Below are positions 10,581-52,161 of a DNA stretch of 64,000 nucleotides, piece after piece. A model generated the notes under the pieces. The model was not told the origin of the DNA. It did not search any database and worked only from the letters and a program-made list of their open reading frames with translations. The position numbers and the translations under genes are program-made. This DNA comes from Lytechinus pictus. Its lineage: Eukaryota. The DNA is taken from NCBI RefSeq assembly GCF_037042905.1, contig NC_087251.1:17796001-17860000 (forward strand), read 5' to 3'. The first letter of the stretch is position 1. Each line of letters opens with the position of its first letter.

Positions 10581-10619
10581 TTAAGACTGTCAACTTCACC
10601 CATGTCCACATTTCATTCA

Positions 10620-12400: not shown

Positions 12401-14463
12401 CCACTGTCTTCTCTAACTATCAGCTGGATTGAAATGTAAATCAAAAGAAGAGCAATGCAAAAGGGGGTTTTGTTTATTAGTCTATTATTTTTTTTTTGGC
12501 AGATGAAAAACTTTGAGTCCACAAAGAAAATGATTGAACAGCAACAGATTTGCTCAGAATGAGGTTATTATGCCATGTGGTAACATCTATACATTACATA
12601 CACTACATCTTTAATTGTTTTAATGAATAAATATATTGAATCACTGCATATACTGAATATTTCATATCCTCACCTAATGAAGGTGATGGATATGATAACC
12701 GAAGGTGTGTTCTTGTGATGCATCTGATAGTTGTTCACTATTGAATACATCATCTGTTATTCTCATTGCTTGTAATCCATCATTCCATAATTATATTCTC
12801 ATGATGAATATACTGTAGAGTAGGCAAAGCAGAGGCAAAGAGAAAGAGAGTGGGAGAGACAAGGGGAAGGGGGGGGGGGGGAGAAACTAGAGAGATGATG
12901 AAGAGAGGAAAGGAGAAAGGATTGAACTTGGCAAAGAAATAAAAGTCACATGTTTATCATACAAAATAAAGAGAGATAAAGACAAAGTGAGAAGTAGCAA
13001 CGCAAGAGAATAAGAGAATGGGAAGGGACATGGGGGAGATGTAGACAGAAAAAAGGTAATTGTACTTGGATGCACTGAAACAAATAGGTATAAAGGAGTT
13101 AGATTGAAACCTAATAATCACCTATGCATTTAAGATAGATGAGAGAGGTTATCTCGTTGAAAACGTTATAAAAACAAAAGCAACAATAGGAAAAGCAAAA
13201 TCTTACACAAAATGCACAAAACACTTAAAAATCATAACACTTCAGGTGTAAAGATACACCATACAGCATACCTGGTCAATTCCCAGAGAAATTTCTTTCG
13301 AACCAAACCAAGAATACTATGGGTCGATAACATGGCTCAAAATAATATTGGAAGCATCAATTATTGGGTGATACAGCGAGCCATGCAAACATGGGATGAT
13401 CATGTTATCTAGGAGACCTCTGGCAAGAAGAGATAATGCAAGGTCGGAGACAGTGAGATGGATAGATGATGCATTTAGCACCGATGCCATCCTGGATGGA
13501 GACAGAAGACAGGGAGGTGAGAAATAGGTGCCCCAGGTATGAGATGGGTGGGATGATGATGGATGTGATGGTTGCTAGGGAGAGGTGCAACAACATCACC
13601 AACCATATCTCCTCCAAGGGAAGGAGTAACACTAGATGGAGGAGAGATTTTTATGGTAGGTTATTCCAAATCAAGTTAACAAGCATACTTCTGAGGAGTT
13701 AAATGACTGTATCAATTTAGCTTGGAACCACCCACACCTTGAGTTAAACTTACAAGTTCTATGACATCAGCCAACACTCAACTCATTCCTGGTCAACGTT
13801 AGTAGAAAGAGGAAATTTGACACAGTGGAGTTGCTTCCTAAAATTGACACCATTTTTGCATCAAATTTGACTCTGCAGAAATAAGAGTGCAACAAATATT
13901 CATTAAAAAACTGCTGCACTCAACCCAGGTTGAGGAAAATGGTACTTAGTAGGGTTTAATCCTTGAATGCTTTTTTAGTTAAGCAACTCAGCTGCATCCA
14001 GGGTAATGATATACGCTCTGGAGGTAGCTCCATGCATGCACTGCACAATATCGTAAAAACCCCCATAGTATCCATGGCCTGAATGGGCCTAGAGTTTCCA
14101 TGCAATATAAATATGGAAAATATAAGTAATAGTAGAAGTATAATTGTAAAGATTGGGCATTGTAAAAATCAAGGAGATGGGAGTGACATGGACCTAACAG
14201 TATTTGAAGGTGAGAACAGATACAGAACTTTAGAGAGTGAAAAACAAGATTGCTGAGAAGGGAAACTGAGAAGGTAGCACCTTCTGCATGAGGCTCTGTG
14301 GTAACTTGAGAGATGTATGCAGCTCAGTTGTCACCAGGTCAATGCTCTCCTGTGATATCATCATGATGATAATGATGACTGATGCTGTCATATGATGAGG
14401 GTGTTGATGGTGAGACTGATGGAGGTCACTAATCACCTGGCACTGATATCATTGACATCAAAC

Positions 14464-14489
14464 CAGGGAAGTGTTATAACACTTCCCTG
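14464..14489. mobile_element. 26-bp perfect palindrome with 7-bp TSD; probable P-superfamily excision footprint
   Basis: ATCAAAC|CAGGGAAGTGTTA-TAACACTTCCCTG|ATCAAAC, with the direct repeats at 14457-14463 and 14490-14496. Confidence 0.75.
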
Positions 14490-16668
14490 ATCAAACTGAG
14501 ATGCAGACATCTTCCAGGACAGTGTATTCAGGAAGAATGATATCATTTACCATATGGTAATAAAAGGCAAGAAGGGAGTTGGTGAAGATAATATTGTGAA
14601 TGATTATGATGCTATTATTGATGTCTGAAAAGAGAACACAATCTACCTGGTAATGTTGTATTAGGTTGTAAAGTGCATGCATAATACATAATCCCCACAA
14701 ACAGAATATTAGTGCAGCAAACTTCTATTTGATAAAAAAGAGTCAGTCTCAACTTCATACACTTTTGTTTTTTATTTTTTACTTTTCAAAAGTAAAATAA
14801 AGGAGAAAGAATTCAAAGAGACTGACATCCGTACTCTGTTACCATAGATTGCAAACGTCAATATGTCTTTAAATCGGTCTGTGCATGATCAAGTTACAGC
14901 AAAGGCAAAAGCGGTGTCTGAATTATTGTTGCCGCAAACATCATGAAATCTCCAAATAGCACACCTTGCAAACAGACACCTAGAAAAAGAGAACATTCCT
15001 TGTAAACAGTGTCGGATAACCCCACAGAGCGAAAATAGTCCATATTTGAACGGCATATGGCAGAGATGATACAGCGAGCCTCTCTCCCACTGAGTAATCC
15101 ATGAAACATGAGAAACATTTCATCCCACAACGCTGTCAACACAAGCCGAAAAAGAGGAAGAAAAATGTGCACAAATAGACCAAACTTAATACCCGGTCCC
15201 TCCATTTTCGGGGCAAGGTTAACAAGTCTTAAGTATGTTTGCCATCTTTTGTGGGTGTTGACAGGAGGGTGGAGGGGGGCAGGTTGAGCAGAAGGAAGAA
15301 CATAGAAGTAACTCTATGCCTATGACTGCCTTGAACTTTCGTTGGAGGTGCAATAACCGCTAGAGCCCCGTGAAATGTGAGACCAATCTGGGTGTCGGAT
15401 CTATACCCCATGCCTAACTCAAGAATGGGAACAGAGTGATAAGGGTACATTAGATGGAAAGGCAGGCTGATATATGTCAGGAAACCTGTGACAAATAGGC
15501 AGGCGAAGAAAAGTTTAGATTTTAATAGGAGAGGTGGTTTCAGGATGTTGATTCCTTTTCAGCCCAAATTTGGGGGCCCATTTCAAGAGAACTTTCAATA
15601 TTATAATAACTTTGCCATTGTGTTACATGTCAAAGTCAAGATTAACATGGTATTTACAATGACAACAAAACTATTTTAGGCATAATAGTAAGGCTTAATA
15701 AAAACATGGACCCAGAATATAAATATTTGGTTTCCAAAAAAATAATGACAAAAATAATACCAAATTTTTATATAGCACAGATTACAGTTAAGTCTCTTAG
15801 CATAGGATTTGAAGGGACTTGTTCAACACTGCCACCCCTGTCCAGCCTTTGCTATGGAAACAGCAAAGTTGTGATCATCAAGATATTCACAAGGAAAGTG
15901 GACATATCATAAGAGGATCAGGGTTCAATGAACGTTTGGTTATTCTATATGACTTTGAGAAATATGATTTGTTAATCATTTCAAGTATTATCAGTGTACC
16001 AGTGGAAAGAAATCACTATGCATGAAAATAATATCAAATGACTTTTGAATTTGAACCTAGGACCAATTACACATCACACAATCCTTGTTGACTGATGATC
16101 ATACAGCCACAAGATCACTTCTATAAGAGCTATCATGTCTTCTCAATGTTACAAGCTACCACACCAGCTGTCAATATTCAGTTGAAGGCTTATCGCATGT
16201 ATGAAGAATATAAATGAATTGTATGTCTAACTTCCTATTCCATGTTCAAATGCAAGTATATCTGAAATTATTATTTTGTAGAAAACATGAACATAATAAT
16301 AAATGAACTAAACCCCTCAAAAAAAGTAACGCAACTCGAGTTTGAGGGGTTATAAAAATCTTATTGGCCCATCACCATATGTGAAAATGGTATCATATGC
16401 AAGCGGAATTATTCCTCTTTGCAATGATGTCATTTGTTATGTTGATTTTACCATGAGATGCGCAGTCATGATAAATGAGCAGTAATGTCAAGAACAAAAT
16501 GTTGCAAAATTCACTGTTTTCAGTAGTGAATTCATGATTGTACTGAACAGACTTGGATTGGTGTTTAACTCATTATTTCAAACATTTAAAGACAATGAAG
16601 ACACAGAAACAAATTGTTTATGTTTTATCACTTTCTTAAATTTTATTGAGAACTTCATACAACACGAG

Positions 16669-17662
16669 TCAGTAGCGGGTAGATGACCCAAACACATTAA
16701 CTACTGCATTACATCTCCTCCTCATACCGTTCACCAATCTCGTCACACGAGCCTGTGGGATGGCGTTCCACTCTTCAACCAGAATCAGGCGAAGCTCTGC
16801 TAACGTTGTATGATCAGTCACTCTCTGCCTGACAGACCTGCCAAGCTGATCCCACAAGTGTTCAATTGGGTTGAGGTCTGAACTGTTCGCTGGCCACTCC
16901 ATCCTCTCAACGCCCTCATTCTGCAAGTACTCGTTGTCATCTTGAAAGATAGCATTTGGGCCAAGATTACCGTGCAAATATGGAAGTACCACTGGTTGAA
17001 GCACTTCGTCTCTGTAGCGCTGAGCTGTCATGTTGCCATCAACAAGGATGAGTGGTGTCTTCCCCATCGTGGACATGCCTCCCCAAACCATTACACTGCC
17101 TCCTTCAAATGCTGTCACTCTGTCGACGCAACAATCAGCAAATCGCTCACCAGGACGTCGCCTGACCTTGATCCTGCCGTCAAGCTTCCTAAGACAGAAT
17201 AGTGACTCATCAGAAAAAAAGGACAGATCTCCACATCGCCTGGTTCCATCGTAAATGGTCACGGTACCAGCGCATACGGGTACGATGGTGAAGGACAGTC
17301 ATGGCAGGTCTTCTTGCAGCTTTACGGGCGCTCAAGTTGGTTGCATGGAGCCGGTTTCTGATCGTCTGATCAGACAGTCTTCTCCCGTATCTCCGTGCAA
17401 ACCTTTCTTGGAGATTTCTTGCCGATAGCCTTCGATTCCTTTATGCAGAGAGGGTGATATAGAGATCTTCCTCTGGTGTTGTCTGCTTTGGACGCCCACT
17501 TCTTGGCCTGTCTTTAACTTCCCCAGAATCAAGGAATTTGGCACTCAATCTTGAGATGGTGCTTTTGCTCACACCAAACCGGATGGCAACATCGTTTTGG
17601 GATACCCCTGCTTGGAGTTGGCCAATTGCTTGGGCCCTAAGGAGATTTGATAAGCGGGGCAT
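16669..17662 (-). pseudogene. Tc1 (DD34E-type) transposase, inactivated
   Basis: N-terminal paired-like HTH (MPRLS...VAIRFGVSKSTISRL...DRPRSGRPK) and catalytic motifs FSDES, GGSVMVWGG, FQDDN and WPANSSDLNPIEHLW. Lesions: in-frame TAA at 17441-17443, a +1 frameshift in the A7 run at 17214-17220, and about 10 codons missing after FQDDN (near 16932). Confidence 0.95.
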
Positions 17663-17730
17663 ATGGAAACCTTTTTCAAGCAACCACAAAAAAAAACACC
17701 ACAGGTTTACCTCACACAAACCAATAGTAA

Positions 17731-17893
17731 AACCTCAGTCACATTTGCTCTATGGCGGCCGTACGGCGAGTCGAAAACAGCCGTTTTAACATTTGTTGTA
17801 CCAGCTACATAATAAGTGATTTGAATAAAAATGAATAAAACGGCTGTTTTCGACTCGCCGTACGGCCGCCGTAGAGCAAATGTGACCGAGGTA
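17731..17893. mobile_element. PIF/Harbinger-like hairpin MITE inserted upstream of the Tc1 transposase
   Basis: About 57-bp TIRs, ACCTCAGTCACATTTGCTCTATGGCGGCCGTACGGCGAGTCGAAAACAGCCGTTTTA and its inverse with 2 mismatches. Flanked by TAA and TTA. Confidence 0.9.
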
Positions 17894-18873
17894 TTAGGCT
17901 TAACACACATGATTCATGTCTTTTGACTTCATCAATTACGACCTGGACAGCATTCAAACACATTTAAAGTAAGAACACAATCACATAAACATTTCTGAAA
18001 AAACAACAATATTCATCGGGGCAAAATGCAAACCCATGTGCAGATTCAAAAGAAATGCAGACTTTGGTTAAGAAACAATGCATTTTGCAACATTTCACTT
18101 CTGACTTTGCCTTATTGTCAGGTGTACTGAACATTCCTCGATTGCATAATCAGGACAATCATTTTAATCATTGTAAAGAGGAATAATGGAACTTTTCAAT
18201 GACACCACTCTCACCTTTTATAGATCAATGATAAAAAAGTTATCCTCCCTCAAACTTGAGTTGCGTTACTTTTTTTGAGGGGTTTATAATAACACTGTAC
18301 ACCTGCTAATTAGTTTATAGCTGCTATCAGGTGTTATTATCAGACACTAGATATCTAGAATAAATGCAAAGAAAATACTTCTCTGCATCTATATTGCATA
18401 ACACTTATCACACAGAAACTGTGTCAAGGACTTGATGGCTTTCCCTGAGCTCATTCTCTTTTCATCGCTGTTCTAATAAATTCGAATGTGGTGTATTTGT
18501 AACCAGAGAAGCTAACGGATGATGCTCACTCCGGTTTGAAAGTTTTATGAAGAAGCACCTGTGTCTCGGGTGACATCCTAACCTTACTTTGCAGAGGGGG
18601 CCATGGCATGGCATCGACCTACCCTCCAACAAGCTCCTAGGTCACCTTTGTTGGAACAAACTCTCATGGGAAGATAATCAGGTTAAATTGACACCTTCCC
18701 AACCATCTTTAAGGAGATAGTAAAATTGTAAAGAGGGTAACATGATGAGTCAATTGTTTGGGGAGTTAGAGACAGTCTGATGTGACATGCCATGTCATTC
18801 CATGTCATATGATATCACCTAAAAGTGTTCATTTACAGACACATTAATATTCAAAGGATTTGAATACAATCAG

Positions 18874-19005
18874 GGCCCACCTAGCACAAAACCCAGCGAT
18901 TGATCTTAAAGTTCATTTTTATGATTGAATGGAAACAATAGTTGCAATAAAAATGGGAATCAGTCAAACGATCAATCTTATTATAAAAGCTTTGTGTTGT
19001 GGGCC
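18874..19005. mobile_element. Degraded short Harbinger-like MITE
   Basis: GGCCCAC...CACAAA...GATTGATC at the left is the imperfect inverse of GATCAATC...TTTGTG...GTGGGCC at the right. Confidence 0.5.
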
Positions 19006-22000
19006 TAGGGGTCATTTTGCAATTCAAATAGTCAAGTAATTCTGATAAGCAACAAAAATCAATGCTGATCCATTTCAGACTTTGACAACCGTCTATGCCT
19101 ATACCTACTGCCAATAAATATATTTGTGTGATAATTAATGAAATCAGTTAAAATTTATGGTGTCAAATTTAGTGGGTACAACAGAATATCAGACTGAGGG
19201 TCACAAGATTTACAATTCAAGTCCTGTCATAGCACCAAAACACTCTAGCAAGCCATCAATCCATTACTGGTATTCACCCTGACACATTAGATCAGTTTAT
19301 AGAGTGGTGGTCTTGTAGTCTAATGACCTGTGTTCAAAATCAGTCAATGCACAAGTGCCATTTGGTAAGCTCAATGAGAAACTAAACTGATCCACTCTCT
19401 GGTTGCTTACTATGAAACATTTATTTTCCATCTTTCTTCAAATTATCTTTATTATTATCTTCATTCTTAGTTTCTTAGCAGTTAGTTGAAATTGCCACCA
19501 ATGAAATATATGAAAATGAAGCTAGCTATCTTGAATGTCAGTAATATAGTGGAAGCCTAAACAGAACCATGGCCATTTCATGACGCTGTTTGTAGGTTAT
19601 GCATGATTCTATGCAGGACTGGTGACTTGTTTTATGCTCAATGTTATGTATTCAACTTGACACCAAAAAACATGTTCAGTCGTGTGAAATTTACAAACTT
19701 ATATAAATAGCAAAGTTAGTAAGATTTTATGAAGTGCTTTCATACCAACCTGATCACAGATAATACTTTGTATCTTTATACTGGGGATTCAACCCACATC
19801 TAGTGTGCAAATGAGAAAGTAAACAACTCACAACATTATAAAAATGTTTATAGTTAAACTTTTCAAATTATCAGAACTTTTCACCAAAACTTCTCCAAGA
19901 TTGATGGGATTTTTGCAGATTGAAAGCAAATTATCAAAATCTTAGACATAAGGCAATGTGCATTATTTGCACATGTATGTGAGAGTCTCGTTGCTGGCTC
20001 ATAACTGAAATAACTTTACCTGATTCTGACTTGAGTAACTGCACACAACACAAAATTATCAAGTATTTCATGGCTATTTTTGTGATTAGGTGAGTGTAAA
20101 AGTACCTATGTCATTAATAGCAAAGTTGTAGGCAAATGTAGGAAATGTATTTTTTTTATTTTTATGTTTGTAAATTTTCATATCAGGTTGGAACATTACT
20201 AACTGCACACTGCAGAGAAGTAGGACCATAGCGACAGTCCAGCAATTGCACCAAATGAATTTGCCCAACATACCAGCGATTGTATGTTCTAATGAACGCT
20301 CTGGTGAGTGATAGGCATCTACTCAGTTATCACTACTTAATCTAGAATGATGAGCTACTGTTGATTAAAGAGGGCTGGTAATAATTAGAAGACCTGGGCT
20401 GGCCAACGAATAAAAATATCATTCACAGTCCCATAAAGACAGTACTTGTTTTAAACCCATTTTCTTACCATACAATACTGAAATACTTAAAGCAGTAAAA
20501 GTGTGTGTTTTACCAGCAATTTTATTTAACAAAAATAAGAGATAGAGACGGTGGAATAATGGTGGAGAAAGAATAAAAATACAGATGGATAAACGGATCA
20601 ATAGACAGATACATTGATTGATAGACAAAGAAAGATAGATGGATGACAAGATACATATATACATAAATCTGAATATAATAGATCAAATTATATCATTTTT
20701 TTCTTTCACTGGGATCTCATTATTTCCTTTGTCATCTTTTGAATACAATTTCCACTTGTTGCTGATGCTCAGATTTTAAAATAAGTTATGTTAGTCCTAA
20801 TATTCAACCATTTTCCCCAAGCAAAATACAAAAAAATGTATAAGAATAAGGATAATCTGTATATTCAGAATCGAAGTTAACTTCAATGTATTTACACAGT
20901 AGTTCAAAATGCCCACCCTTTCATCTTCTTATATTTCCATGTTTTTAAAATGAAGTGAAAATTTAACCAAACTATATTACTGGTACTGCCCGGGCTCTCT
21001 AATAAAAGAATGAAGGGGGGTGTGAAACACTGAATTTGATATACATCAGGAAATAAGCAGCTTTGTGGATAAGCCATGAATCATACAACATTCCCTAATT
21101 TTTCAAAGAAAAGTTGAGTCATATCTATCCTTCTAACACCTTTTGAGGTGTGATTTTTATCTTGTACAGGGTGTTGAGAGAGATGTGTCCGATCAATTAA
21201 GGAGTATGATTTAGAATGAGAGGAGAAATATACGGGAAGGGGAGGGGGAGAGGGAGGTTGAAGAGGGATGAGGTAGATAAAATATCCCCAAAAGGATATT
21301 TAAAAATGTTATGGAAAGCAGTATAGGGAACGGGGGTGGGGGAGGGATTGGATGGGAGCAAGGAACAGTCATAAACTGGTATTGAGTATTTCCTTAGAAT
21401 GGAAAGGGGATCAACTGAATTGTGCATAAGGCGTATAAGTGAGATGTGCATTTCTTTACAAATCACATTCTGATCATAATGAATAAATTGTCGATTAAAC
21501 TCAGGAAGTCATCCTTGGAGGCTGTATATCTTCAAAATTTATCATGATGTAGTAAAAAAACAGTTTCTGTCTTGAAACTTTTCCAAGAGGAAATTAGAGT
21601 ATAGCTTAAGAGCAAAGTAAATGCCTTTAACCTTCTTTGCAAAAAACAAACTTGAATCTCTTTGGCTGGTACACCTATGGTGGGTGGAGGAATAATTAAA
21701 AGTGGATTAATCCTTTTTAAAATTACTTGATGTAAAATATTTGGTGTAGATTGTGTTAGCTTTGAGAAAAAAACACATTACCTTGGCAGAAGAATCTCAA
21801 GAGGATAGTCTGTATCAGCAGGGATTGCGGACGTACATAAAAGTAATCTACTGAAGATGTTGACATAGACCACAGTATGCCTTTATTCTTAGGTGACATA
21901 GTGCAGTAAAATACTTAAGGTATTAAAAAACGATTGCCCCATTCATCATCACAGTAATGCTCAAGTATAGAATATAGATATAGATATTACCAAACATTTC

Positions 22001-22154
22001 CAAGAGAATACAAAAGGTCTGAAATCATAAAACTTTTTAACAGTTTTTTAAATCTGAATATAAAAATAAAAGAGTCTGAATGAGCTTTAAGTCTGAATTA
22101 TCATCCCATTTATATCACTGGCAGGTCAAAACTCCAATATATTACAAATACATA

Positions 22155-22469
22155 GGCCCATATTCTGAAGTCAGGTTGAACTTAGACTATGGTTTAACTC
22201 TGTGCTAAAATTATGGGAAGCCAAAAGTGTCAAAATTTTTAGTAAGTTGTATGTTTCATATATTTACTGTGTTCTTTCCTGATTCTTCAATGGTGAAGAT
22301 CAACAATCATCTATTTATACTCCCTAGACAATTATGAATAATTTGAGAGCCAAATGAGCTGTAATATGATATCTCTACTGTTAGTGATTTATGTAACAAT
22401 TGGCTATCCATACTTAAACCACAACTTTAAACCTAAGTTTAAGTTAAACCTAACTTCAGAATACGGGCC
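22155..22469. mobile_element. PIF/Harbinger-like MITE
   Basis: ATA at 22152-22154 and 22470-22472. TIR GGCCCATATTCTGAAGTCAGGTT / AACCTAACTTCAGAATACGGGCC. Confidence 0.88.
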
Positions 22470-22802
22470 ATAGACTTTTTGGAAAGGAGAGCTCCAAAAG
22501 CATAGCTTTGCAGTTTTGCACTTTCATCTCATTAGGGTAACAATTGATAACTTTAAAAAAATGTGTTGAAACTTTCTTAAAAGCCCACTCAACATTTTGC
22601 CCATAAGGATTAAGTTAACCCAACACTTCCCTCTTAGAAACACAAGTTGTCATCTTTCATATTAAAAAGAAACAAAAGAATAGACAGAATGTAAGTAGTA
22701 AGAATTTTAAAGAGAAAGAAGTGTCATGACCTGCATGAAAATGAATGGCAATATACCAAGAGATTGCAGAACAGGCAAGGCTTGTAAAAGGTGAAGCTTA
22801 TA

Positions 22803-23082
22803 CACTGTTTAAAAAAACGTGATTTTACAGAAAAAAAGAGATTTTGAAGAAAGCAATAACAGAATCATTCTGTAAATTCATAAAACAGGAATTTTTCTGC
22901 AATTTAACAGAACAGGTCTGCTTAAAAAGGGGAAAAGGGTGTTTTATTTAAGGAGATTTGTAAGATTACATACACCAAATACCAATTTTCTGTAAGATTA
23001 CGCAATCTGGTAAGATTACAGGTGTTCTTGAGACTCTGCTGCAGGAACTTCTTTTATTTTAAGGATAAATTTTCTAACAGTG
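22803..23082. mobile_element. EnSpm/CACTA-like MITE
   Basis: TA|CACTGTT...AACAGTG|TA termini with internal short repeats (TTCTGTAA, TTACAG, GTAAGATTAC three times). Confidence 0.75.
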
Positions 23083-34889: not shown

Positions 34890-35158
34890 GGCCCTGTCTT
34901 ACAAAGGGTTACGATTGATCTGATCAATCGCAACTATGGACGGCCAGCAACATCAACATCTATTATGCATGTTTGTTCAAAATATTTTTAAACTATGATT
35001 TATATTCATGCATTCATTGTTTTCTTGAAAATTCACTGTGCTTCTTTTGTTTACAAAGGACATTGTGCAAATATCCTGTAGAAAAAATTATGACACTGAA
35101 GGATTTCCATAGAGTTACGATTGATTGAATCAATCATAACTCTTTGTAAGATGGGGCC
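34890..35158. mobile_element. PIF/Harbinger-like MITE with CTG TSD
   Basis: CTG at 34887-34889 and 35159-35161. TIR GGCCCTGTCTTACAAAGGGTTACGATTGAT / ATCAATCATAACTCTTTGTAAGATGGGGCC. Confidence 0.88.
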
Positions 35159-37257: not shown

Positions 37258-37543
37258 GGCCCGGTACCATAAAGCATTGCAACTGATTGAAGGTTCGGTT
37301 CAACGACTGATCACACTAACTATCAGTGCTATCAATCATGAAAATAAGTCAGAGGTTCAATTGTTAAGCTTTGTGTTCCAGTCCAGACCAACACAAGCTG
37401 GAGGATGATAGTACCCTGTAACACGAATCATAGTGACTGCTCGCAGATTGATTTTAAAGGCTGATCGCACATATCCATCAATGCTATCAATAGTGAAAAT
37501 CAGTTCTATGTTCAATTGTTAAGCTCCGTGTGACAGAGTCCGG
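37258..37543. repeat. Two adjacent degraded copies of a roughly 130-bp MITE-like repeat
   Basis: A shared core ATCA(G/A)TGCTATCAAT..TGAAAAT.AGT....GTTCAATTGTTAAGCT..GTGT recurs at about 37322 and 37477. Confidence 0.6.
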
Positions 37544-39089: not shown

Positions 39090-39269
39090 GAGATGGATAG
39101 ATAGAAAGATTGATTGATAGATAGAGAGAGAGATAGACAGACAGACAGGCAGACAGACAGACAGACAGATAGATAGACAGAAAGACATTAGATAGATAGA
39201 CATATAGATAGATAGATAGACATTAGATAGATAGATAGACATTAGATAGATAGATAGATGGATAGATGT

Positions 39270-39308
<39 letters not shown>
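39090..39308 (+). repeat. Compound microsatellite (GATA)n/(GACA)n/(GA)n
   Basis: Directly visible runs of GATA, GACA and GA. Confidence 0.95.
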
Positions 39309-39310
<2 letters not shown>

Positions 39311-42300
39311 GGGATGGGGATTATGAGCATCATATGGAAAGATCATGTTAAATGTGATGATGCACTTAAGTCTAAAAAAGTATTTGATTTTCGTCAAGAG
39401 GTTTGCCTTTCAAGAAGAGGTTTGCCTTTGGCAAGTAATGATAAAAATATCACATTGCCAACAATAACAAATAAATGATGGACAAACAGGTAAGAAAGAA
39501 AAATAATGAGGGAACACAGTAATAAAAGAAGATTAAGCAGTTTTAATGATGTCTGTACCCTAAACTATGATTAAGAAACCCATCCTTGCTTCCATCTTGT
39601 TTGTTCTCTGTGTGTGATAATGGTTAGATACCAGGGAACTTCTTGTTGCTAATGTGATGATGAATACTTAAAATAGGCAGAAAAGAAAACACAACTGTGG
39701 GGGTAAAATAGAACAACAAAATGATTAAACTGCCATTCCTAGCAACGGCAATAAGGTGGTTTCATTATGTACATGAACAAGCAACAATGTAAGAGCAATA
39801 AACATCAATTATCAATGACAGAGCCTGGTAATTACTGTCAGAGGATCCTCATATATTGCTTTTCAAAGAAGTTTTTTATACCAATTAATGAGAGGAATGT
39901 AATTCATCCCTATATCTTCATACTGATTGTCTCTTTAAAAAAATTGAGGTGAAATATGAAATATCAGAAGTAATAATCAATATTAATAGCATTGGTAGTG
40001 ATGATGAAACTGACGATGATTATAATAACTTAATAAGGACAATGATTGCATTGAAGATAATAGTAATCATAACAATGAATCAAATAAACGCAGTGAATAA
40101 TGAAAGAAAGAGGATGATGACTATGATGATAATAATGAAGATGGAATACATATATATTTCTTTAAGAATCTAATAACAAATACTTTGAAAGGGCAAAGAA
40201 ATAAGCATATGAGTAATAACTGATTAAATTTCATGTATAGTAAAAAAAAAAAATCTCAAATCAAAACTAGAACCATACCAAAATAAATAGATGTAGAGAG
40301 AGAGAGAGAGGAGAGACAGAGACAGAGAAAGATGGAATATCACATCAATAATATAATATTATTGTTGCATACATTAATTCTATTTTCAATAGAATTAGAA
40401 CATTCATTTGGACTTATACTACATTTTAAGTGCATATACAACATAAGTGAACAGAGTCATCAAAAGTAGGTTACAACTCCTTGTTTTTGCTTGGAGTGCT
40501 TAAAGCTCTGCAAGACGATTGAATTTCGCCTGTCCTCTTTTCCAAACTGTCAACTTCCAGATGCCAATCTGTCTTAAAAATACCTTGGAGGAAAAACTGA
40601 AAAACAGAATACAGAAAAAAAATGAGAGAATTCAATACAAGTGGGGCATTGCCCGGATACCAGTCTATGTTGACGTAGCCCTGCACCGCTGCTGGGCAGC
40701 CGACAAACGCCAGCAGATTCAGTCGCTTTTAACCAAACAGTGTGTCAATATTTAGGCATAGCTTGATGGGGAAGTGTCCCTGGGTTCGCTGCCCCTCTCT
40801 TTTATAGTTCTTTGTCGGACCTAGAGATATAAATCCTGGCGTTGGTTGCCCGGCAGCATGACAATTCTTTAGCAATCCCAAAGCATGTTAGGGTTTTTTA
40901 TATACTGAAGAGAAAAAAGGAAAGGGAAGTTAAGAGAGTGGGTAGATAGACATGTTACCTTTCAAAGAGCAATTATCTGAAAGGTTAATATGCGAGTAAA
41001 TGTCACTACTTACTTGGAAGCACAATAATGAGGAAGTTCTTAACCATTCTATTTTCATGAAGGTGAAATAAATTTCATGACTTGGCCTTTGCAAAAGCTT
41101 TAAATATGTTCTATAAGGATGCAAGAATTAACACTTTTGTTTTTTTTAATTAGGGAAAGAAGAGGACCTAAACATAATATGATACATGATTTTAAAATGA
41201 AGTTTTCATGATTTTCAAATGAAGGTGATGCAGATGATGTGAGGGTTAAACATATTGCTAAATAGATACCATCAGGTTGATATTTGTGTTTCTTTGGTGA
41301 GAGAGATAGAGAGAAAAAGGGGGTGAGGGAGAGATAAGGGGGAGAAAGAGAGCACAAGAGAAATATATAAATAAAAAGAGAAATGGTAGAAAACAAGAGA
41401 GACAAAAAGAAATCCTTAACTTTTCCCTCTAATTCTAGATGTCACTCTTTCAGGGTTATAAAGTGCATTTACATACGCTTCTTGTAATTCAAACTCGCTG
41501 TAACCTCTGCAGTGTAACCCAAGTAAGGGTGAAAAAGTGAGAGAAAGGGGATATGAAAAGCAAAGAGTTTGCTGATGAAATTTTAATTTTCTCTACAGAG
41601 GTGGAGATTTGATGGTCAGTCTCTGTGACTGAAAGCCATCCATGTTCTCAAGTGTGCAACCCAAGATGGGGATTGCGCTCTACTGATGATCAGAGCATGA
41701 CGTGTAGCTTTTCATCCTATCAACCTAAAGTGAGGTTCCCCTGATCATGGTTTCAAGGGCCTGGTTTCACAAAGAATGGTCCGTATTTCCTATTACTTCT
41801 CCCTCTAATACGTTCTTGATTGAGTGCTGACATTGCATACAGGATCTCTTAAAGAAATGGCACTGATACCGAGGGACCCTGCCTAAATTAAAGTTTTAAA
41901 AAGAAAAATCAAACAAGTCCATTAATTTCCGAAAGATATAATTTAGCTGTTGTCTTTTATTTTGTTTATTTTTTTATTAAATTATTGTTATACTATGGCC
42001 CCTGACACAGGACTCCAATTTCAAAGAGGTTGCCAAACCAACATGTATCTTATATAATGTATTGTATTAGATATGTTTATTTTCATGGTTGAAATATATT
42101 GAAATTGATTATAGGTTGAGCTAAAGTGTCAACAATATTCAAGTTGAGAACGATCCTCATGTAACAAATCACATTCAACTAATCCAAGTATGCTGGATAC
42201 TCATAAACTGTGACAAAACCTGCCATGGTACAAGACACTGAGCCTCACTGAATAAAACATTGAGGTAAGAATGGCTACTAAGACCAGGGGCCATTTACCC

Positions 42301-42337
42301 TGGTGTGAAACCCTAACTCTGTCAATCAAACAAACAG

Positions 42338-42474
42338 GAGAGCATTTCATGAGATGTCTTGTCAATGATTTTTCAGTGACAAAGTTGCTCTCAGCCAATC
42401 AGATGCAAGGATTTTGGTAGCTTATAACAAATGACAGTGACAGGTGCTGACGAAATGCTTCATGAAATGATCCC
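42338..42474. mobile_element. Short Harbinger-like MITE, diverged
   Basis: CAG and CTG flanks. Ends GAGAGCATTTCATGA / TCATGAAATGATCCC. Internal CAGCCAATCAG. Confidence 0.65.
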
Positions 42475-45400
42475 CTGACCACATTTCTTGAGGCCACAGG
42501 TTTTTCCAGGACTCACTGAAAATGAGGGCAAGATGGGGACAGTGTCCAAAGTAACGAATACATAAAGCATGCCATGAGAATATTACCCGGCAGGTGGAAA
42601 TAATATTACAGGGCTTGTTCCATGCAATGGATTAATCAAACATATTTTACATCATATCAAAATATTATCAATACAATGGCCAGATGAGTTTTGCTACATG
42701 ATTGGGAATTTATTAGATCAAGGAATGGACCAAAGGGGTTACACAAAAAGGGGTGGCAGTGGTCAGAGGGCCGAGGGGCGGCATGGGTTGACTATGCAGA
42801 AACATTGTAATAAAAAACGAAATGTAGAGAATTAGGTAGGTCAACATTGTTGGAGCATGTCCAGGAGGAAATAATACAAATTCAAGGAGATTGCCTTGGG
42901 GTGAAATAAGATGCTATCCTAAGACACTTCAAGAGTCATGGTGACTCTTCCTAGTCATCCATTTGCATTTTAGTTGATATTTATTTCTGCTTTTATGTAG
43001 GACACAGACTAACAAGTGGGACAATCTTTAACTCCTAGCATGCCAAAGTTGTGAGTTGGCACCACATTCTAATTCATTATTCTCTATTCATTGTTCTGTC
43101 ATGTTTGGAGTTGGTTATGATGATAACATGTTGAGACAAGACTAACCAGAGAGAATGGTGATATCTAAAACCATCCATGAAACAGAATGTTCACATAAAA
43201 AAAGGTTCCATACTTGTGAGAGAACTGCTGATATAGCATATGGTACAGTCAGGGAAAAGGCATGGAGGCTGATAGGGATCTGCCTTTGAAATGTGAAAGT
43301 AGCCCACTTGGCTTTGCATTCATTACTTCTGTTGAAAATCATTTAATATTGGTAAAGAATGTATGTGCAAATATCAGGTACAGATTTTTATTGGTGCCTA
43401 TTATGTGTGAATACAGATTTTTGTCCCTTTTTGTCCAAAGTTTACTAAAATACACAACAGTATTCTTATATCATTTAGAGTTCATGGTATATGAAGTACT
43501 AGTCAATACGCAATAGAGTTAGGTACATGTAGTTGTGAAGTAAAAGCATGAGAGGCAGAAAGGATATTAAAAAGCTTTGGACTGATATAAGGTGCATCTT
43601 GAAAAGACACTTAAATAAAACCTCCACAGAATGGTTCTCAGGTTCTCTCAAATGTATGCAATTTCTCTTGGCCGGATATAGGCTAGAGTGTCTGATAGGC
43701 TTGAATTCTGATATCCGAGTTTGAATATAAGTTACACATCCTTCAAAAGCTGTGGCCAACCTGACAATCAGGACAAAGGCAGAAGGAAATCAAATACACC
43801 AACACTGACAAACCAAGGGAATTTTCCTAACCAATGTATTTGAATTGCAGATGTGCAGTTTACACTGGACTTGCATATCCTTGGGAGAAGAACTCTGAGT
43901 AATACTACAACCTGTGCATTTTTCATATAGGTCATATATACAGAATAAAATAATTCAAACATGAATTACTTAATTGTAAGGGGTGGAAAATGGAAATGGA
44001 ATAAAGAGGTCAAAACTCTCTCATTTGAGAATAATATTCCCCCTTTATAAAGTCAATGTGATTTGTTATTTCTTATCATATCACATGGTAAGTTTAAGCA
44101 TACAGCACTTCATAAACCATCATTATGTATTAATCATTTAATGAAAAGTAAAAGCGAACAGAGATTGAAGATAGGCATAAACATGGATAAGCACATGCGT
44201 TTACCTGCACTGATTATACCTTGAAAATTAACTCAACACAAGGAAAAATAAATTGCTTTATCTTGCTGATACATCACACATTTTCTAACTTTCTACCAGA
44301 AGCAGTATCTTGTGATATATGCCCTCAAAATATAAAGTTAGTGATAAGTTAGTTGGATTCTGTTGGAGTTGTATTTGTTATTAGTACCACATATGGAGTT
44401 CAATGTTACTTGCACAGTAAACAAGAGAAGATGGAATAGGCACAAGATGCAGCAGACTCAATGAGAGTCTTCCTGTCGGTCGCTGATGCAGCTTGTCAGC
44501 TCCTTCCCTTAGTGGCTCTTTGGCGAACAGAGGATGATAACAGAGTGCTTTAATACCTTAATTGAGGAGGTCTTTCCTCTTCAGAGTGGTCTTTAATAGA
44601 CGTCAATTGGTATCCCTCACAGCTTCCTCATCGATCCTCAACCAAAGTAAAGACCCAAGAATTAGGGCAAATTTGCGGAGGCAGCAGTATGATCATCGGA
44701 TGGTAGGACAGTAATTATCTAATCCATTATTCCCCTATTGACATTTCCTCATAATATATTTAAATTCATCCTTGCTCTCACCAAGGTGATCACTTTTAAT
44801 GTCTTTTGTTGATGTTCTAAGAACCTCCCCCTCCCCCTCCCCCACTTGAGACTGAATACCTTGATCTAGTCTTTCTCCATATGATTGATTGGACAGTGTT
44901 TCCATCATGGGTTGTCAAGATGGTAATTATTCAGAGGTATCATGGCACACTGTTTTATTCAGTGATTCTTAATTTTAGGACCTGGGTTCATTTCTTTGCC
45001 CTTCATATTCTACAATCTTTTTTATCTGGCCATGGTAGATTTTTGCCAACACAACTGAATGACAATAAATATTTCACATCTCAAATAAGCAACAACAAAA
45101 AAGAAGAAAAAGAAAAAAAGAAAACACAAAACCAAATCCCCACAGAATCAGGATAATTTTCAAATATTCTGACATGAATGTAGTTATCCTAAATACTAAT
45201 GAAAAAAAATGCATGGTTTTTGTCTCATTAGCTGCTCCCCCATCCGAAAAAAATGCATATAAATTGTCACTATTCTATCGTCCGTAATAAGTGTAGTCCT
45301 ACATGACATGAACATCGAGTGCTAGCAAGTTGCCTACAACTGTTGACATGAAGCCAAAGTGGAGGGTTATACAATTTCATGAAAGTGATGATATAAATAA

Positions 45401-45929
45401 ATTCTTGTAGTTTTCTTCACATGGAGGAGATTCGCAAGGTAAACGTGGTGCAGGAAATCCGCTTTTCAGAGAGATGTTCAGATGCCATGAAATACACCTA
45501 CGGGCTTTGCATTTAAAGAACTGTAACCAATGTTACCAACTATAGAACACCTTTCCCTCAGGAGTGGCCCTTTACAAGGACCTAATGGACAGATAGGATT
45601 CCTGTTCAGATCATCCGATGGCTGTGACGGGCTCTGAATCAATTACCAGTCTTGATCCATGCCTGAAAATGATATCTAAGAAGCTGATTATTTTGAGAGT
45701 TGGGTGTAGAGGTGCTTGCCTGCTGAGCGACAGCAGCAGGAAATCAGCTCTATTTCGTCTCATGGACATATTCCAGGAATATCCACTAGCTTGAATCACT
45801 AGTCATATGCTGAGATGTGGATAATAGTGAAAATAGATAGATTATTCATATTAATCATGAATTAGGTCATTCCAAATGATTTATATGCAGATAACAATGT
45901 TTTATTATTACATGATAGCAGACTTTTAA

Positions 45930-46014
45930 CCCCTCCAGCTCTGAGCCCAATATAACATCTGCATAATGTCTATGGGAAATGTGTAATACGCTGAAATCAA
46001 TGATGTTTGATGGG
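45930..46014. mobile_element. Possible 85-bp piggyBac-like MITE
   Basis: TTAA|CCC...GGG|TTAA with a weak TIR (CCCCTCCAGC versus CCCATCAAAC). Confidence 0.4.
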
Positions 46015-48258
46015 TTAAAAGAAGTGTTTTCCACTACACAGCCAATTATAAAATGTATTCAAAATGCAAGTCCAGATAGTATATTATGCATATGAGTGTG
46101 AAAATATTTTGATTATTATATCCAGATGTAAAGGAGGATATTTCTTTTATTTTCTTGATAATATGTGCTAACTGTGACAATCACACTATAACCTATCATT
46201 CTGAGCTTTTTACCTTGCTTTTCAAGATAATTTCCATTAAAGGAAGGTCTGGAAAAAGACTTCTTTCAAACAGGATAACAGAAGACTTCCTACATTGCGT
46301 GTTACCTATTACCCAGTGAGGGCGCCTCTCGTAGAGGTCAGTTGGTCTCATGACGAGACTAGTCTTGATCTTGATCAAGTCAATCACGAGAATGGCAAGT
46401 ACAAGGGCACTGTTAATGACCTGAGGCCCATACTAAGAAAGAGAGAGAGAGTAATCTATAATTTGATAGTATTTCCTTTGAAAATTACCTCCAATTCATC
46501 AAACAAATCAGACATATTATTCAACTTAGTTCTTTCTACTTTCAAGTTAGAAAAAAAAATACATACATGTAAGTATCCTAAGTACATGTAAGTATTCCTG
46601 TATCAAAATTTATTTACTGATGCATACAGGTCACTAGAAGAAACTGGATTTATCTACCTTCACAAAAACTGCATGAATATTATTTGAAATGGTTCATTAT
46701 TTTCATCATTATCCTATTTCAGTCAATTCAATCATATATATTGATAGGGATGGGGACATCAATTACACAAAGGTACAATGAACTGATTTCAGCAGGTGTT
46801 AGGGTAATGTTACACCCTTACGTCCTCGTTTCCTAATAACACCCCGTATCTTATAACCAATTAAAACAACTCTTTGACCTCTCCTTGGCAGTTTCTAGAA
46901 ACTGAGTTCTTTCCAGTTTCAATCTCATCTCTGAACCAGACCTGGGAATGACGTAAGGAGATACATTTAATATTTACAACTGATTGTAACTTATGAACAT
47001 GTTTACTGATAATCTTTGTTTATATAAGTTGACAAAATGTTTTAATGTGGAAGTTTTTGCAAGAAATTGAAATGAATGGATGAATCAACTTTTTGTATAC
47101 AGTTTTCCATAAATTTACAGTTACACTCAATTGTATCTATTATGTTGCACAGCACTGGGATGTGACATAAAGGTTTATAATTCATTGCAAATTTTTGTAC
47201 ATGGTTTGCTACAGACTTGCAATTAAGCTCAATTGTAAAACTTATTGTATCTTTTATGTTAGTGGGCACTGATATTTTGCATGACTCCCTTGAAAACAAA
47301 GTGACTTCTTAACTCAATATCCTCTTGCGTTGCCAGATTCTTCATTCTAAAATTTCATTGATTTTTCTCTTTGATTTCATGAAAACAAGGTGTTTCTCAT
47401 TCCTTGTTTTCTTCAGACACGACTGCTGAAATGGAGGCACTTCTATCACCAAGATCCGAGGAGCCATCAGCTTGGAATAGCTGCAGAGTGCCTCACGTGA
47501 CACCCAGTGCAGCCATCACTCCTTTTCGTTCCCTAGCCCTGGCGCGTTAACTGTATTGTGTTTCAGCTCCCACTAATTGATCCCCGAAACCGGAGACTTG
47601 TGCCTATGATAGGGGATATTTGGCTAATATCAGTCGGTGAGTCGGTGTGTTTGACATTTGATCGGCGGGATGTGCTGGTTGGATAGTGGAGAACCTTATC
47701 CTGGTAGTTATAATGTTACTATTTGATACCTTTACCTTCTCGTTTCCCCTCTCTCACCTTTCAGGGGGAAGCTACATGATTACTTTCGTGGGAGTAATAT
47801 AGGGGGAGAAAGAACTGTAAGGAAATTTGAAATAGGCCACCTGAGATCTCAATACCCAACCCCGCACAATATACTCTTTTCTGAAAGAGTTGATATCGAC
47901 GGAAATTGCATTAGCCATGCTCTAATGTGTGTATCCAGACAAAACAAAAACAGCACATGGAGAAAGTGACATTCTTATAACAATTACTAACTTTTGTACC
48001 TAGTCAATGATGATATAAGAGAGAAAGGTATGATAAAAACTGATGCACAATATTGCAGGAGAGCAGTTTTAATTTCCATGAAGTACATTGCCTCATTCAG
48101 AAAGGTATCAAAAGTTTTGTTTCTACCAATGAATTTTGAGAAAAAAATAGTGATATCATAGAGCTATTAAAATCAAGGGGAAATGGTAGAGATAGGGTAG
48201 GGATAGACGGGATGTGAGAGAAGAAATGGTATAGATAGAGTAGAGGATGTCTTCAAAC

Positions 48259-48474
48259 GCCTTGTTCAGACTATTGTCCAAGGGAAATTGAAATCTCTCC
48301 CAGACACATATTTCTTATGACCCACTGTTCACACCTTTCTCTGAGAAACAGATTCCATGATGGGAAATGAGATAGAATGCACCTCTCTGTGACTGTTCAG
48401 ACTACAAGACGAGATGAGAGTTCTTTAAGGCGGAGGTAGTTCCCTCCCCTTGGACAACAGTCTGAACACAGGGC
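48259..48474. mobile_element. MITE with about 26-bp TIRs
   Basis: GCCTTGTTCAGACTATTGTCCAAGGG pairs with CCCTTGGACAACAGTCTGAACACAGGGC. The motif TGTTCA(G/C)AC is repeated internally. Confidence 0.75.
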
Positions 48475-50659
48475 TAATCTATCAAAATGACAGAAGTCTC
48501 ATCCAAGTCTCTCCTCACAACCACTTTAATACTCTACTTTTCTCTCTCCCCATCTATCACACTACTTTAATTGTGGACCTCATTACACTTGTCGTTAAAG
48601 CGGTATGAGAATAGTTAGGTGAGCTATGGCTATCTCTTTCTGCCTATCAATCAGCGTGCTCCACTTAAACTCTTGGCAATGTCTGCACATTCTTTCATAT
48701 TTTAAAGCACAGATTTATTATGATAGAATTGTGAATCTTTGTCTCATGGTTTTTTATTTGCTTTCATTGAATTCATCATGATAATATATCCTATGTAATA
48801 TTGCTCCCAATAAATATCTATTCTAATATATTAAATTTTCTAACTAAAACATGTCACAAGATGGTTATATCAAATGCTTAATGATTCTTAAAATAAAGTT
48901 TTTAGGAAAGTTTAATATCTTTTTTTCTTCATATTTTGTCATCAATAAGTTGTACCAAAGACTGACTTTCTATCTGCAATTTTTATGCATCTACACGTAC
49001 AACTGGATATTCAGTAACAGATCAGTAATAATACAATTATTCTGAAATGATTATAAAATATATATGTCCAGCAAAGTCCTACAAATGTTCATGCTTCTTG
49101 TGAAACAGCGATTTCTTCACATTGCAAAACTCTGACTTAATTAAAATGCAATTTTTTTTGGGGTACATGTCCTCCTTCCTACTTAACCTCAATATTGGCA
49201 TTGTCATGGAAACACAGTTAAGAAGGAAAAGAGCATCCCATATGGGATGGCATCCCTACAGGGGGGATATCTTGCAGATAGCTTGTTAATCAGTTAATCT
49301 AATTGCATCATATCTCTACAAAACACACCCTCATCACTTTCCATCTTTATAGATATTTTGTAGTAAAACGGGAGAAAAAATGATTAAAGCGGGACATGTC
49401 TTCTCAGAAGGTGAACAGGCTCTTGTGCTGTAAAATTAGACTTGACATCTTTTATGAATAATGAAGTGCATTTTTTTATAATGATGTGTTGGCCATTTGA
49501 TCTATCAGAATCTGGAATGTTAATGTGTTTTCATCTATATGACCCATTGTAAAATCTTTGTGATGATGTAAATGGTTGATTTGGTTATTCTCCTTCTTAT
49601 GACGGTATATATTATAAGACTGCATAACCAAAATGTTACTTCGGGATAAGGACACAAGAACTGAGATTCATTCTGTCAAGGTACTGAAGCTATCTATGGT
49701 GGCTGTGGTATACTGCTTTTCACTGCAACAGGAGTATACACTTCTTTGAAGAGGTTGTTATTATACTTTCTTTTAAGAATTTTATTTTTTTCCCAGTATG
49801 GCTATTTTGGTTTATCTCTCCCTCACATACGAATAACAAGGTCGAATGTGCAGAGAAATTAACAGATAAGCGTGATTGTGATTGACCATCCATCATTCCC
49901 ATTTCAAACAAACATTTCTGCACGAGGATGTGTAGAGTATCTAAAAATCAAATTGATAAGGAATATCAAATATTCAACAACTAGAGAAACTTAAGAATAA
50001 ATCCAACCACATTGTTTTCTTGAAAATGTAAGGTTTATTACTGAATGCCCCTACCTCCCACATATTATACTGAGACATTAAAGTATCTCCTTTCCCCTGA
50101 GAAAAAAAATTGTAAAGAAAATAAATAAATACAACTTAGGCTTGATTTTTTAACAAGGGTACTGATAATGGTACCTCCCCATTTTAAGAAAGCCCAGGTA
50201 AATCTTCAAAGAATCTGTGAGTAAAATCTCCCCCTTTTTTCTCCCCGGGGGTCCAAGCTGGGATATTTCAGGCAAATCTGTGACAGAATCACATCTGCCC
50301 ATCCACTTTCACATTCTCCATTGCTAACTTTGAATTTAACATGAGTCAATGTGTGTTGACAAGATTACTTGTGACAGAAATGTGTTCTGAAACTTGGTTT
50401 GACCTTGCTCAACTTCAGATGTATGTATTGTTTAGTCCTGAAGAGGAAGGATAGAGAGAGGGTGGGGGGGGGGGTTCAAGTTCAAATTTTCTCTTATTGA
50501 GGGTCAGGGGTGAACTTCATGTTTGAAAAAGATTACCAAATTGGAGAGGGCACTGTATCAATAGGGCTTTTAAATAACTTATGACTTTGTTTATGGAATA
50601 AGAAGAGCAACACAACATCCATTGCCAATCGATTGCTATAAGAGTAGGGACACTCTGAC

Positions 50660-50683
50660 CATGGACCTACTAGTAGGTCCATG
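50660..50683. mobile_element. 24-bp perfect palindrome with 7-bp TSD; probable P-superfamily excision footprint
   Basis: CTCTGAC|CATGGACCTACT-AGTAGGTCCATG|CTCTGAC, with the direct repeats at 50653-50659 and 50684-50690. Confidence 0.75.
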
Positions 50684-52161
50684 CTCTGACTAATTGCTAA
50701 AATTCTAACAAGAGGTCTATTTCTTTGGATTGACAACTAGTTTGCAAGCACACTCTAATATGCTAAGGGTTAAGTGCACAATGCCCTTCGAGCATATTCA
50801 GACTATTTTTCAGTGAGTTTTGGCAGAGGATTTTTATCTGTAAGCTTGAGGAAGATTGCCATATATCCCCAAGAAAAATATAAATATGGGGGGAAATATT
50901 TTACCTTTTAATAATTGTTCAGGAATTCATACCAGGTCATTGCTTTGCACTCTTACTGGAATTTGTTCAAAGAGAAAGGGATCTATCTATTCCAATATAT
51001 TACAGATATTAAAGATGAGGGTGAGGAAACAGGATAAGAGCATCTCTCCTATTGAATGATATATATTCCAATCTAGTCATACAGGAAACCAGTCAGACAG
51101 AGCAGGCAGCAGGAATAAAAAGAAGCAAACAGTAATACAAGAAAAAAACATAGATACTGTATTTTCTTCTACTCTCTTCAACTATCTTTCCTCCTCTCTA
51201 ACATTTTTTTAAATTCCATCTGGTACCTGGGTTTTTCCCAAACAATGTTTTCTTCCTATAAAACTTGTCAGATAAAGAATCACAAGGGAACACCATGAGT
51301 ACATCAATCTTCTTGAGCTGTAAAGCATGCATAATTCAATGGTTTGTGCTGTTTGGGTCTTCTGGGAACAATGGTTTCTACCAGGTAAATAACAGTTGCT
51401 TTGGCAGTCCTTGAAGGTAGTATGAGACAGAGGTGAACAGGGGCACAGTGAAGTTGTCTTGAAGATCCTTGTTGATTCATCAAAGACAATAGTACCACTC
51501 TTAAAACCATGTTTGGTTCACTGGTGGGTGGGATGGTGCCTTGGATGATCAAGTACTATGTCAACTAGAGGGAAAATGACTTAATTGCATTACATTCTAA
51601 ATCTAAAAGATAGGGGACATTTGTTTGAACAAATCTGGCAAAAAGAAATAAACAATGTGGTCTCCTTACAGGTTCCAGTGTAGAGTTATGCATATCATAC
51701 AAACAGTAACATGAATAGCTCCCCCGAACCTATTCTTTATGGTAAGTGTTAGTCGAAAGGCCTAATCGAAACCAATACATCTATGATATTTTTCTTTCAT
51801 TTTCAGCTAAAGAACATGAAGGGCATAATTGCATCTTTCTCAAAGGCATTATCATCCTTTTGCTTCCAAGCATAAACATCAAAAGCACACCTTGGCTTTG
51901 GGAAGTTGGCTGGGGGCAAGAGATAATGTGTGGAAGTTAACACCCATCCATCTCATTTACCCATATACCTCTCCTACATTCCCAGGACAGACTATCATCA
52001 TCTCCATCTATCCATCTCTCATCACATACCTAGAGGGCAGGCTTGAGCAAGGTAAACCTACCTTATCACCACCAAGTTACTTTCTCAAAGCAGACAGAAG
52101 GTAGACTCATGGCCCAAAGAAGGAGAAAAGAGACTTCAAAAAAATTCTATGACAAATTTAA

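Follow-up and report, generated by a model that had tools for sequence, protein, structure and literature searches.

Two short perfect palindromes in a 64-kb window of the Lytechinus pictus genome (the window being the whole stretch of DNA that we analysed, G000:C7:17796001-17860000 within an 812-Mb animal genome) are most likely repair scars of cut-and-paste DNA transposons, probably of the P superfamily, at sites carrying 7-bp target-site duplications. We hold with good confidence that they are excision scars that formed through the end joining of deep staggered cuts. The evidence for this comes from the structure and copy number of the palindromes, from a young transposon whose ends match one of them, and from a sharp limit to the amount of each transposon end that was left behind.

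At locus 1, the 26-bp sequence CAGGGAAGTGTTATAACACTTCCCTG (14464..14489) forms a perfect palindrome of 13 plus 13 bp with zero spacer and lies between two exact copies of ATCAAAC (14457..14463 and 14490..14496). At locus 2, the 24-bp sequence CATGGACCTACTAGTAGGTCCATG (50660..50683) is a perfect palindrome of 12 plus 12 bp between two exact copies of CTCTGAC (50653..50659 and 50684..50690); no strand is assigned to any of these features. A first-pass annotation of the window had described these two CA...TG palindromes, with their 12- to 13-bp arms and exact 7-bp duplications, and our own reading of the sequence, together with a script, bore this description out. There were no further perfect palindromes with arms of at least 10 bp in the window, and a scan for inserts of 10 to 60 bp with inverted ends of at least 5 bp between identical 7-mers returned just these two loci. 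In first-order Markov shuffles of the window (n = 100), we found a mean of 0.06 palindromes with arms of at least 10 bp and none with arms of at least 12 bp. The analytic expectation for arms of at least 12 bp was 0.0089, and the probability of identity between 7-bp flanks was ~1e-4, so that chance is excluded for both palindromes. As both loci lie in single-copy DNA, no paralogous empty sites exist for them. Their single strands are predicted to fold into 10- to 11-bp hairpins (−11.6 and −9.6 kcal/mol); these modeled folding energies say nothing on function, and we claim no cruciform role.

Both palindromes recur throughout the genome. We found 36 exact copies of the 26-mer and 60 of the 24-mer, whereas the reversed-pattern controls gave none. 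Judged by the flanks, which we read for every one of its 36 copies, the 26-mer occupies 35 distinct loci, 33 of which had an exact 7-bp direct repeat, different in each case; of the two that lacked the repeat, one was present twice in one repeated context. Among the 17 of the 60 24-mer loci that we read, the 7-bp repeat was exact in 14, carried one mismatch in 2 and was missing in 1. Variants of the 26-mer were few, with five one-mismatch copies (two of them possibly joints of 16 plus 10 nt) and no two-mismatch copies, and from these counts the 26-mer is very young.

To place these numbers on a genome-wide scale, we drew a random sample of 40 segments of 10 kb (400 kb). It held three clean cases (CA..TG ends, arms of at least 10 bp and an exact 7-bp duplication) and a fourth with a one-mismatch duplication. 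With arms of any length from 5 bp upward, there were 26 matches of the same geometry versus a mean of 3.9 in shuffles. By our own arithmetic, 4 cases per 400 kb would correspond to ~8,000 in the whole genome (Poisson range, ~2,000 to 20,000); the density in the window, 2 per 64 kb, is somewhat rich and not exceptional. Two of the sampled termini, CATGGAGCTA and CAAGGAGATA, were then searched for in the whole genome along with those of the two window palindromes. Facing 10-nt ends within 20 to 30 nt of each other occurred at 81 sites for CAGGGAAGTG, 1,296 for CATGGACCTA, 365 for CATGGAGCTA and 221 for CAAGGAGATA, which together make 1,963 short joints, and every reversed control gave 0. The prediction in the first-pass annotation that there would be many copies genome-wide was thus upheld by the exact copies and the sampled cases, and the outcome that it had named as fatal to the idea, a frequency no higher than in shuffled controls, was not what we saw.

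The source of the locus 1 palindrome could be traced. The 14-nt arm CAGGGAAGTGTTAT had 286 genome matches, versus 2 for the control, and among these were inward-facing pairs 1.2 to 1.6 kb apart. All nine of the long copies that we fetched carried 38-bp terminal inverted repeats (TIRs), CAGGGAAGTGTTATAGAAGGAAATGAAACTCGAAAAGT, which start with CAGGGAAGTGTTATAGAAGG and have 0 to 1 mismatch, and were flanked by exact 7-bp duplications. A 20-mer from the start of the TIR had 37 occurrences, comprising 17 pairs and 3 unpaired ends, and a DNA search gave ~20 copies of this element, which we call family 1, with 93 to 100% identity. One copy lies 157 kb outside the window, and there is none inside it. 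The arms of the 26-mer are bases 1 to 15 of this TIR and bases 11 to 1 of the other end, overlapping at TATA. Since they match the TIR start of ~1.3-kb copies with 7-bp duplications, the arms belong to a real transposon: they are the outermost bases of a young, ~1.3-kb nonautonomous DNA transposon that makes 7-bp duplications.

A known mechanism could convert such ends into the palindromes that we observed. In the accessible part of PMC7776569, the Drosophila P transposase is described as cutting the 3′ strand at the tip of the element and the 5′ strand 17 bp into the inverted repeat; repair of the donor break is said to proceed by homologous recombination or end joining. If the transposase acting here likewise made its 3′-strand cut at the tip and its 5′-strand cut 17 nt into the TIR, each donor flank would be left with the same 17-nt 3′ overhang, in family 1 5′-CAGGGAAGTGTTATAGA-3′. 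Because a perfect TIR makes the two overhangs identical, they could pair only at a self-complementary word. In family 1, the longest such word is TATA at bases 12 to 15, and pairing there, followed by the trimming of two 2-nt flaps and the filling of the gaps, would give a product of 15 + 15 − 4 = 26 bp, exactly the locus 1 palindrome. The locus 2 palindrome consists of bases 1 to 14 of a family 2 end and bases 10 to 1 of the other end, and pairing at CTAG (bases 11 to 14) would give 14 + 14 − 4 = 24 bp, again exactly what is present. Other joints would arise from other microhomologies, blunt joins, fill-in (17 + 17 = 34 bp) or loss on one side. A proposal of the first-pass annotation, that these sequences are a fossil record of P-superfamily cut-and-paste activity, fits the duplications, the CA..TG ends, the target motif described below, the parent element and the 17-nt limit. 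Its corollary that arm length reports the cleavage stagger does not hold up: TATA and CTAG lie inside the 17-nt overhang, so that arms of 12 to 13 bp mark where the microhomology lies; only the longest arms, in rarer joints, reveal the stagger.

The spectrum of family 1 joints agrees with this arithmetic. Both 10-nt ends of family 1 lay within 30 nt of each other at 81 sites, 36 of which were the 26-mer. The 50 joints that we listed ranged from 21 to 42 bp and included lengths of 23, 24, 25, 27, 28, 29, 30 and 33 bp, with several forms recurring. Joints of 24, 26 and 28 bp fit overlaps within the TIR at TA (bases 12 to 13), TATA (bases 12 to 15) and TA (bases 14 to 15), respectively, and the 27- and 30-bp joints each consist of a 17-nt arm joined to an arm of 10 or 13 nt.

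The longest arms set the limit. A 16-mer from the TIR start had 81 genome matches, 44 of them outside full TIRs. At the 31 such sites with at least 16 nt of TIR that were scored by script, the match ended at base 16 in 7, at base 17 in 18 and at base 18 in 6, and at none of these 31 did it reach base 19 or beyond. TIR base 18 is an A, seen in 6/24, so that the matches ending at base 18 are near chance level. Six further sites, examined by eye, ended at base 17 (five sites) and base 16 (one site). The end length retained in family 1 is therefore limited at 17 nt, as judged from 31 scripted and 6 by-eye sites of the 44. Many of the long-armed sites were one armed, with no second arm, which fits the loss of one flank during repair.

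Elsewhere in the genome, the family 2 arm reads CATGGACCTACTAG followed by CAA or AGA, and such 17-mers had 148 matches. A frequent 21-bp form fits an overlap at TAG, and a 34-bp perfect palindrome, flanked by CTTTAAT on both sides, represents two 17-nt arms joined blunt after complete filling. An apparent 909-bp family 2 element, L143 (G000:C12:6078551-6079459), proved to consist of two separate scars, one on either side of a high-copy 450-bp repeat, and a further pair of this kind lies on C14. Derivation of the insert from the outermost TIR bases of a real element holds for locus 1 only, as no parent of family 2 was found among the arms sampled.

An empty counterpart of locus 1 was found in a related organism. 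We used public runs from three studies, which held 29 to 39% of the sampled words; one run, which contained the stretch in full, is probably the source of the assembly itself. Contigs of the related organism read through locus 1 with no palindrome there. The contigs of two runs left out exactly 14457-14489 (33 bases, i.e., 26 plus 7), and the 7 letters that fit both sides were a single copy of ATCAAAC; the contig of the third run had its joint at 14463/14501, with 4 different letters in between. These contigs show that the locus 1 structure is either polymorphic or the result of an insertion that followed the divergence of the two lineages. In every run, the palindrome was covered 7 to 20 times as deeply as its flanks, implying that the same word is multicopy in both organisms. 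The empty site alone does not separate a scar from a mini-element.

At 63 target sites, symmetrized, the duplication had G/C at position 1, T at position 2 (85%), A at position 6 (85%) and C/G at position 7, and the position three bases outside it was A or T in 91%. The inserts begin with CA and end with TG, which we take to be the terminal motif of the P superfamily. On the basis of the 7-bp duplication, the CA..TG ends, the target motif and the 17-nt limit, the superfamily is probably P. The target motif resembles what the accessible part of PMC4168063 gives for Galileo, a member of this superfamily, namely a 7-bp GTANTAC target and a 15-bp palindromic target motif, and in the accessible part of PMC7776569 the 17-nt staggered cut is presented as an unusual feature of the P transposase. 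P-type transposase genes are present in the genome, with 8 matches to PF12017 and 57 protein matches. Intact frames of 817 and 959 amino acids (aa) have the N- and C-terminal TNP-like RNase H domains and the GTP-binding insertion domain, and the 959-aa frame is present twice, with 99.7% identity.

We looked for an autonomous partner among several candidates. The long family 1 copies L023 (5.3 kb), L024 (6.6 kb) and L145 (3.2 kb) contained no transposase; their extra length was made up of a nested, 1004-aa frame like that of a long interspersed nuclear element, repeated 90-aa frames or low-complexity sequence. A 3-kb relative with the TIR CAGGGAAGTGGGAGGT..., L147, had no long frame. L212 has a 630-aa P-like frame and, 426 bp upstream, the CATGGAGCTA 10-mer with no partner end; this is compatible with chance, as ~130 kb had been scanned for four 10-mers.

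Several observations weigh against the reading of the palindromes as P-type excision scars. The superfamily is one that we infer from four indirect features, because no transposase could be tied to these TIRs. Scans for inverted repeats and duplications over flanks of up to 1.5 to 5 kb showed no P-type transposase locus with matching ends and duplication, no autonomous element with these TIRs was found, and no family 1 copy encodes a transposase. Family 2 has no parent, in that 26 sampled 14-mer arms and 30 CAA 17-mer arms (two samples that overlap by a few sites) share no internal sequence; its arm limit looks like 17 to 18 nt, with base 18 being A in 23/30. The CAAGGAGATA family has joints of 34 and 36 bp as well as an identical 38-bp joint that recurs at least three times. 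By eye, these joints suggest arms of 19 to 20 nt, and the stagger may differ from 17 nt in some families. At family 1 sites, one junction type makes up 36/81, a dominance that could also be obtained by the copying of a unit, and the locus 1 alleles seen are the empty one in the related organism and the scar here, with no full-element allele observed at either window locus. Finally, some copies are carried along within larger repeats, as 9 of the 20 single-arm sites that we sampled have one flank in common, so that raw counts overstate the number of events.

We therefore considered what else could produce such palindromes. The first-pass annotation had raised the possibility that they are minimal mobile units, made of two TIR tips and reinserted by transposase with a new 7-bp duplication each time. 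This would account for the large number of identical copies that occupy different sites and have clean 7-bp duplications, for the single form that makes up 36 of the 81 family 1 joints, for scars far outnumbering full elements (family 2 being without a parent), for the recurrence of the identical 38-bp joint in the CAAGGAGATA family and for the restriction of the locus 1 alleles to empty and scar. A copied unit should keep a constant length and accumulate substitutions, but joints between these ends have many different lengths, in keeping with the arithmetic of microhomology, the 26-mer is found as 36 exact, 5 one-mismatch and 0 two-mismatch copies, many sites are one armed, and the arms break off sharply at 17 nt although the TIR is 38 bp long. 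Moreover, a unit of 26 bp lacks the internal sites to which P transposase binds and is too short to bend so that its own ends could pair. We thus regard mobile units as very unlikely. Equally slight, in our view, is the chance that some of the dominant 24- to 38-bp palindromes, having formed as scars, were also remobilized; two TIR tips alone would then be the smallest known eukaryotic transposons, and their remobilization would explain both the dozens of exact copies and the scars that outlive their parent families.

The other two alternatives keep the element and change the enzyme or the repair. Excision by a transposase of a non-P superfamily, novel or poorly characterized, that also cuts deep inside its ends would be in line with the absence of a P-type transposase tied to these TIRs and with limits (17 to 18 nt, perhaps 19 to 20 nt in other families) that differ from the single Drosophila value. 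To our knowledge, however, no other described eukaryotic superfamily leaves so much of each end. Intact P-type transposase genes are present in the genome, and the 7-bp duplication, the CA..TG ends, the palindromic G-T...A-C motif (PMC4168063, accessible part) and the 17-nt limit (PMC7776569, accessible part) all fit P, which makes this alternative improbable. The palindromes could also be extreme internal-deletion derivatives, produced not by the joining of overhangs but by aborted gap repair off a sister element (synthesis-dependent strand annealing). Internally deleted P elements do arise by aborted gap repair in Drosophila, and the joints use microhomology. But template copying has no reason to stop at base 17, and 0/31 long arms reach base 19; nor were there 40- to 300-bp intermediates among the family 1 DNA matches. 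We consider this origin extremely unlikely.

Among known systems, the closest to the scars described here are the P footprints of Drosophila melanogaster, in which a remnant of each inverted repeat lies between the target duplications with a 17-nt limit (PMC7776569, accessible part). They also share the short-microhomology joints and the CA..TG ends. The present record differs in having a 7-bp rather than an 8-bp duplication, in coming from a non-insect animal, in being natural and genome-wide rather than derived from crosses or plasmid assays and in being dominated by one microhomology product, because the overhang contains a 4-bp self-complementary word. Galileo and 1360, P-superfamily elements of Drosophila, have the same 7-bp duplication and palindromic G-T...A-C preference according to the accessible part of PMC4168063; Galileo differs from the families here in its very long TIRs and in that its transposase is known, and the word footprint does not occur in that part of the paper. 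Zebrafish Pdre2/THAP9 is likewise a deuterostome P-like element with short, CA-initial TIRs and internally deleted copies, and it has an active transposase; its duplication is 8 bp, however, and its excision products were deletions in plasmid assays rather than scars catalogued across a genome (all from the accessible part of PMC10983969).

[quoted passage not shown] Unlike MITEs, the palindromes have no internal sequence, are far below MITE size at 24 to 26 bp and vary in junction length, not by substitution. We therefore rejected membership in the MITE class, which is marked by TIRs around internal sequence and by substitution variants, whereas the 26-mer has 5 one-mismatch versus 36 exact copies. 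The footprints of Tc1/mariner elements also consist of element-end bases between duplicated target bases and accumulate in genomes. They keep 2 to 3 nt per end at TA sites, whereas up to 17 nt per end is kept here, at 7-bp duplications. Another paper that we considered as a source on P overhangs, PMC2943611, concerns I-SceI breaks instead, to go by its accessible part. A title-level literature search, which is weak evidence of absence, found no catalogue of natural P-type scars, either genome-wide or in echinoderms. The first-pass annotation had ranked the palindromes as a candidate for an under-described system, a description that suits them poorly in that the mechanism is the textbook one for P elements. 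What is new is a natural, genome-wide and apparently recent record of it in a non-insect animal.

A number of further observations were made along the way. Within the window, a 209-aa open frame 2 kb from locus 1 (16669-17298, minus strand) matches DDE_3 (Tc1/mariner-type transposase, E 9e-8) and is a separate transposon remnant. The 3-kb family represented by L147 (G000:C17:31829703-31834688, ~1001-3986) is a sister of family 1, with the TIR CAGGGAAGTGGGAGGTTAGAAGG... and the duplication GTCTCTG/GTCCCTG. Its own short joints are present among the listed family 1 joints, and several related families therefore have the first 10 nt in common. Two family 1 joints lie 62 bp apart at L041 (G000:C9:20208253-20208340), the two family 2 joints at L143 are ~900 bp from each other, and such close-lying scars of one family may reflect local hopping. 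The 1004-aa frame nested in the family 1 element L023 (G000:C1:25183661-25189939; 1670-4684, minus strand) resembles, by eye, a protein of a non-long-terminal-repeat retrotransposon with endonuclease and reverse transcriptase. A 23-bp family 1 joint (14 plus 9 nt) with identical flanks and no 7-bp duplication recurs at 9 of 20 sampled sites (L083, L085, L087, L091, L092, L097, L098, L101 and others, in G000:C1 and C3); this scar or scar-like word has spread in a larger repeat beside a (CA)n tract, and L001 and L067 have a related right flank in common.

At L009 (G000:C1:30398769-30401792, ~421-1523), a ~540-bp unit is present in three tandem copies. Copies 1 and 2 end in a 17-nt family 2 arm (..CTAGCAA) that enters the next unit, and copy 3 ends in the 24-bp palindrome with the duplication ATGAAAG; the array resembles the outcome of aberrant repair or of a template switch where an element was excised. 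The identical 38-bp CAAGGAGATA joint is found at G000:C1:1483724, C2:32477394 and C2:63107452, and with one change at C3:59448376; it is either a copied unit or a blunt join of 19 plus 19 nt, which would mean that this family is cut more deeply. L194 (G000:C21:9246589-9251310) and L195 (G000:C4:26168810-26173531), which are 99.7% identical over at least 4.7 kb, each carry the intact 959-aa frame, whose N-terminal part is acidic and repetitive, and direct repeats of ~270 bp lie on either side. The pair may represent a live P-like element, a domesticated gene that was duplicated or a duplication in the assembly.

The scars are by-products without shown function. If our reading holds, they would nevertheless form a natural archive of ~2,000 counted, and possibly several thousand, excision-and-repair events. 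The depth of the cut in each family would be readable from its scars, even where no copy survives, and the archive would supply a large set of in vivo germ line end-joining junctions with known starting overhangs. The deep stagger has been biochemically mapped for the Drosophila enzyme (PMC7776569, accessible part); here it would be suggested to be common to distant P-like families in a deuterostome, and the 17-nt limit suggests that this odd stagger of the P transposase is ancient. In genome annotation, perfect palindromes of this kind would need to be labeled as transposon scars, not as regulatory or structural motifs. Because the 26-mer is very young, family 1 may still be active, and its scars may be polymorphic.

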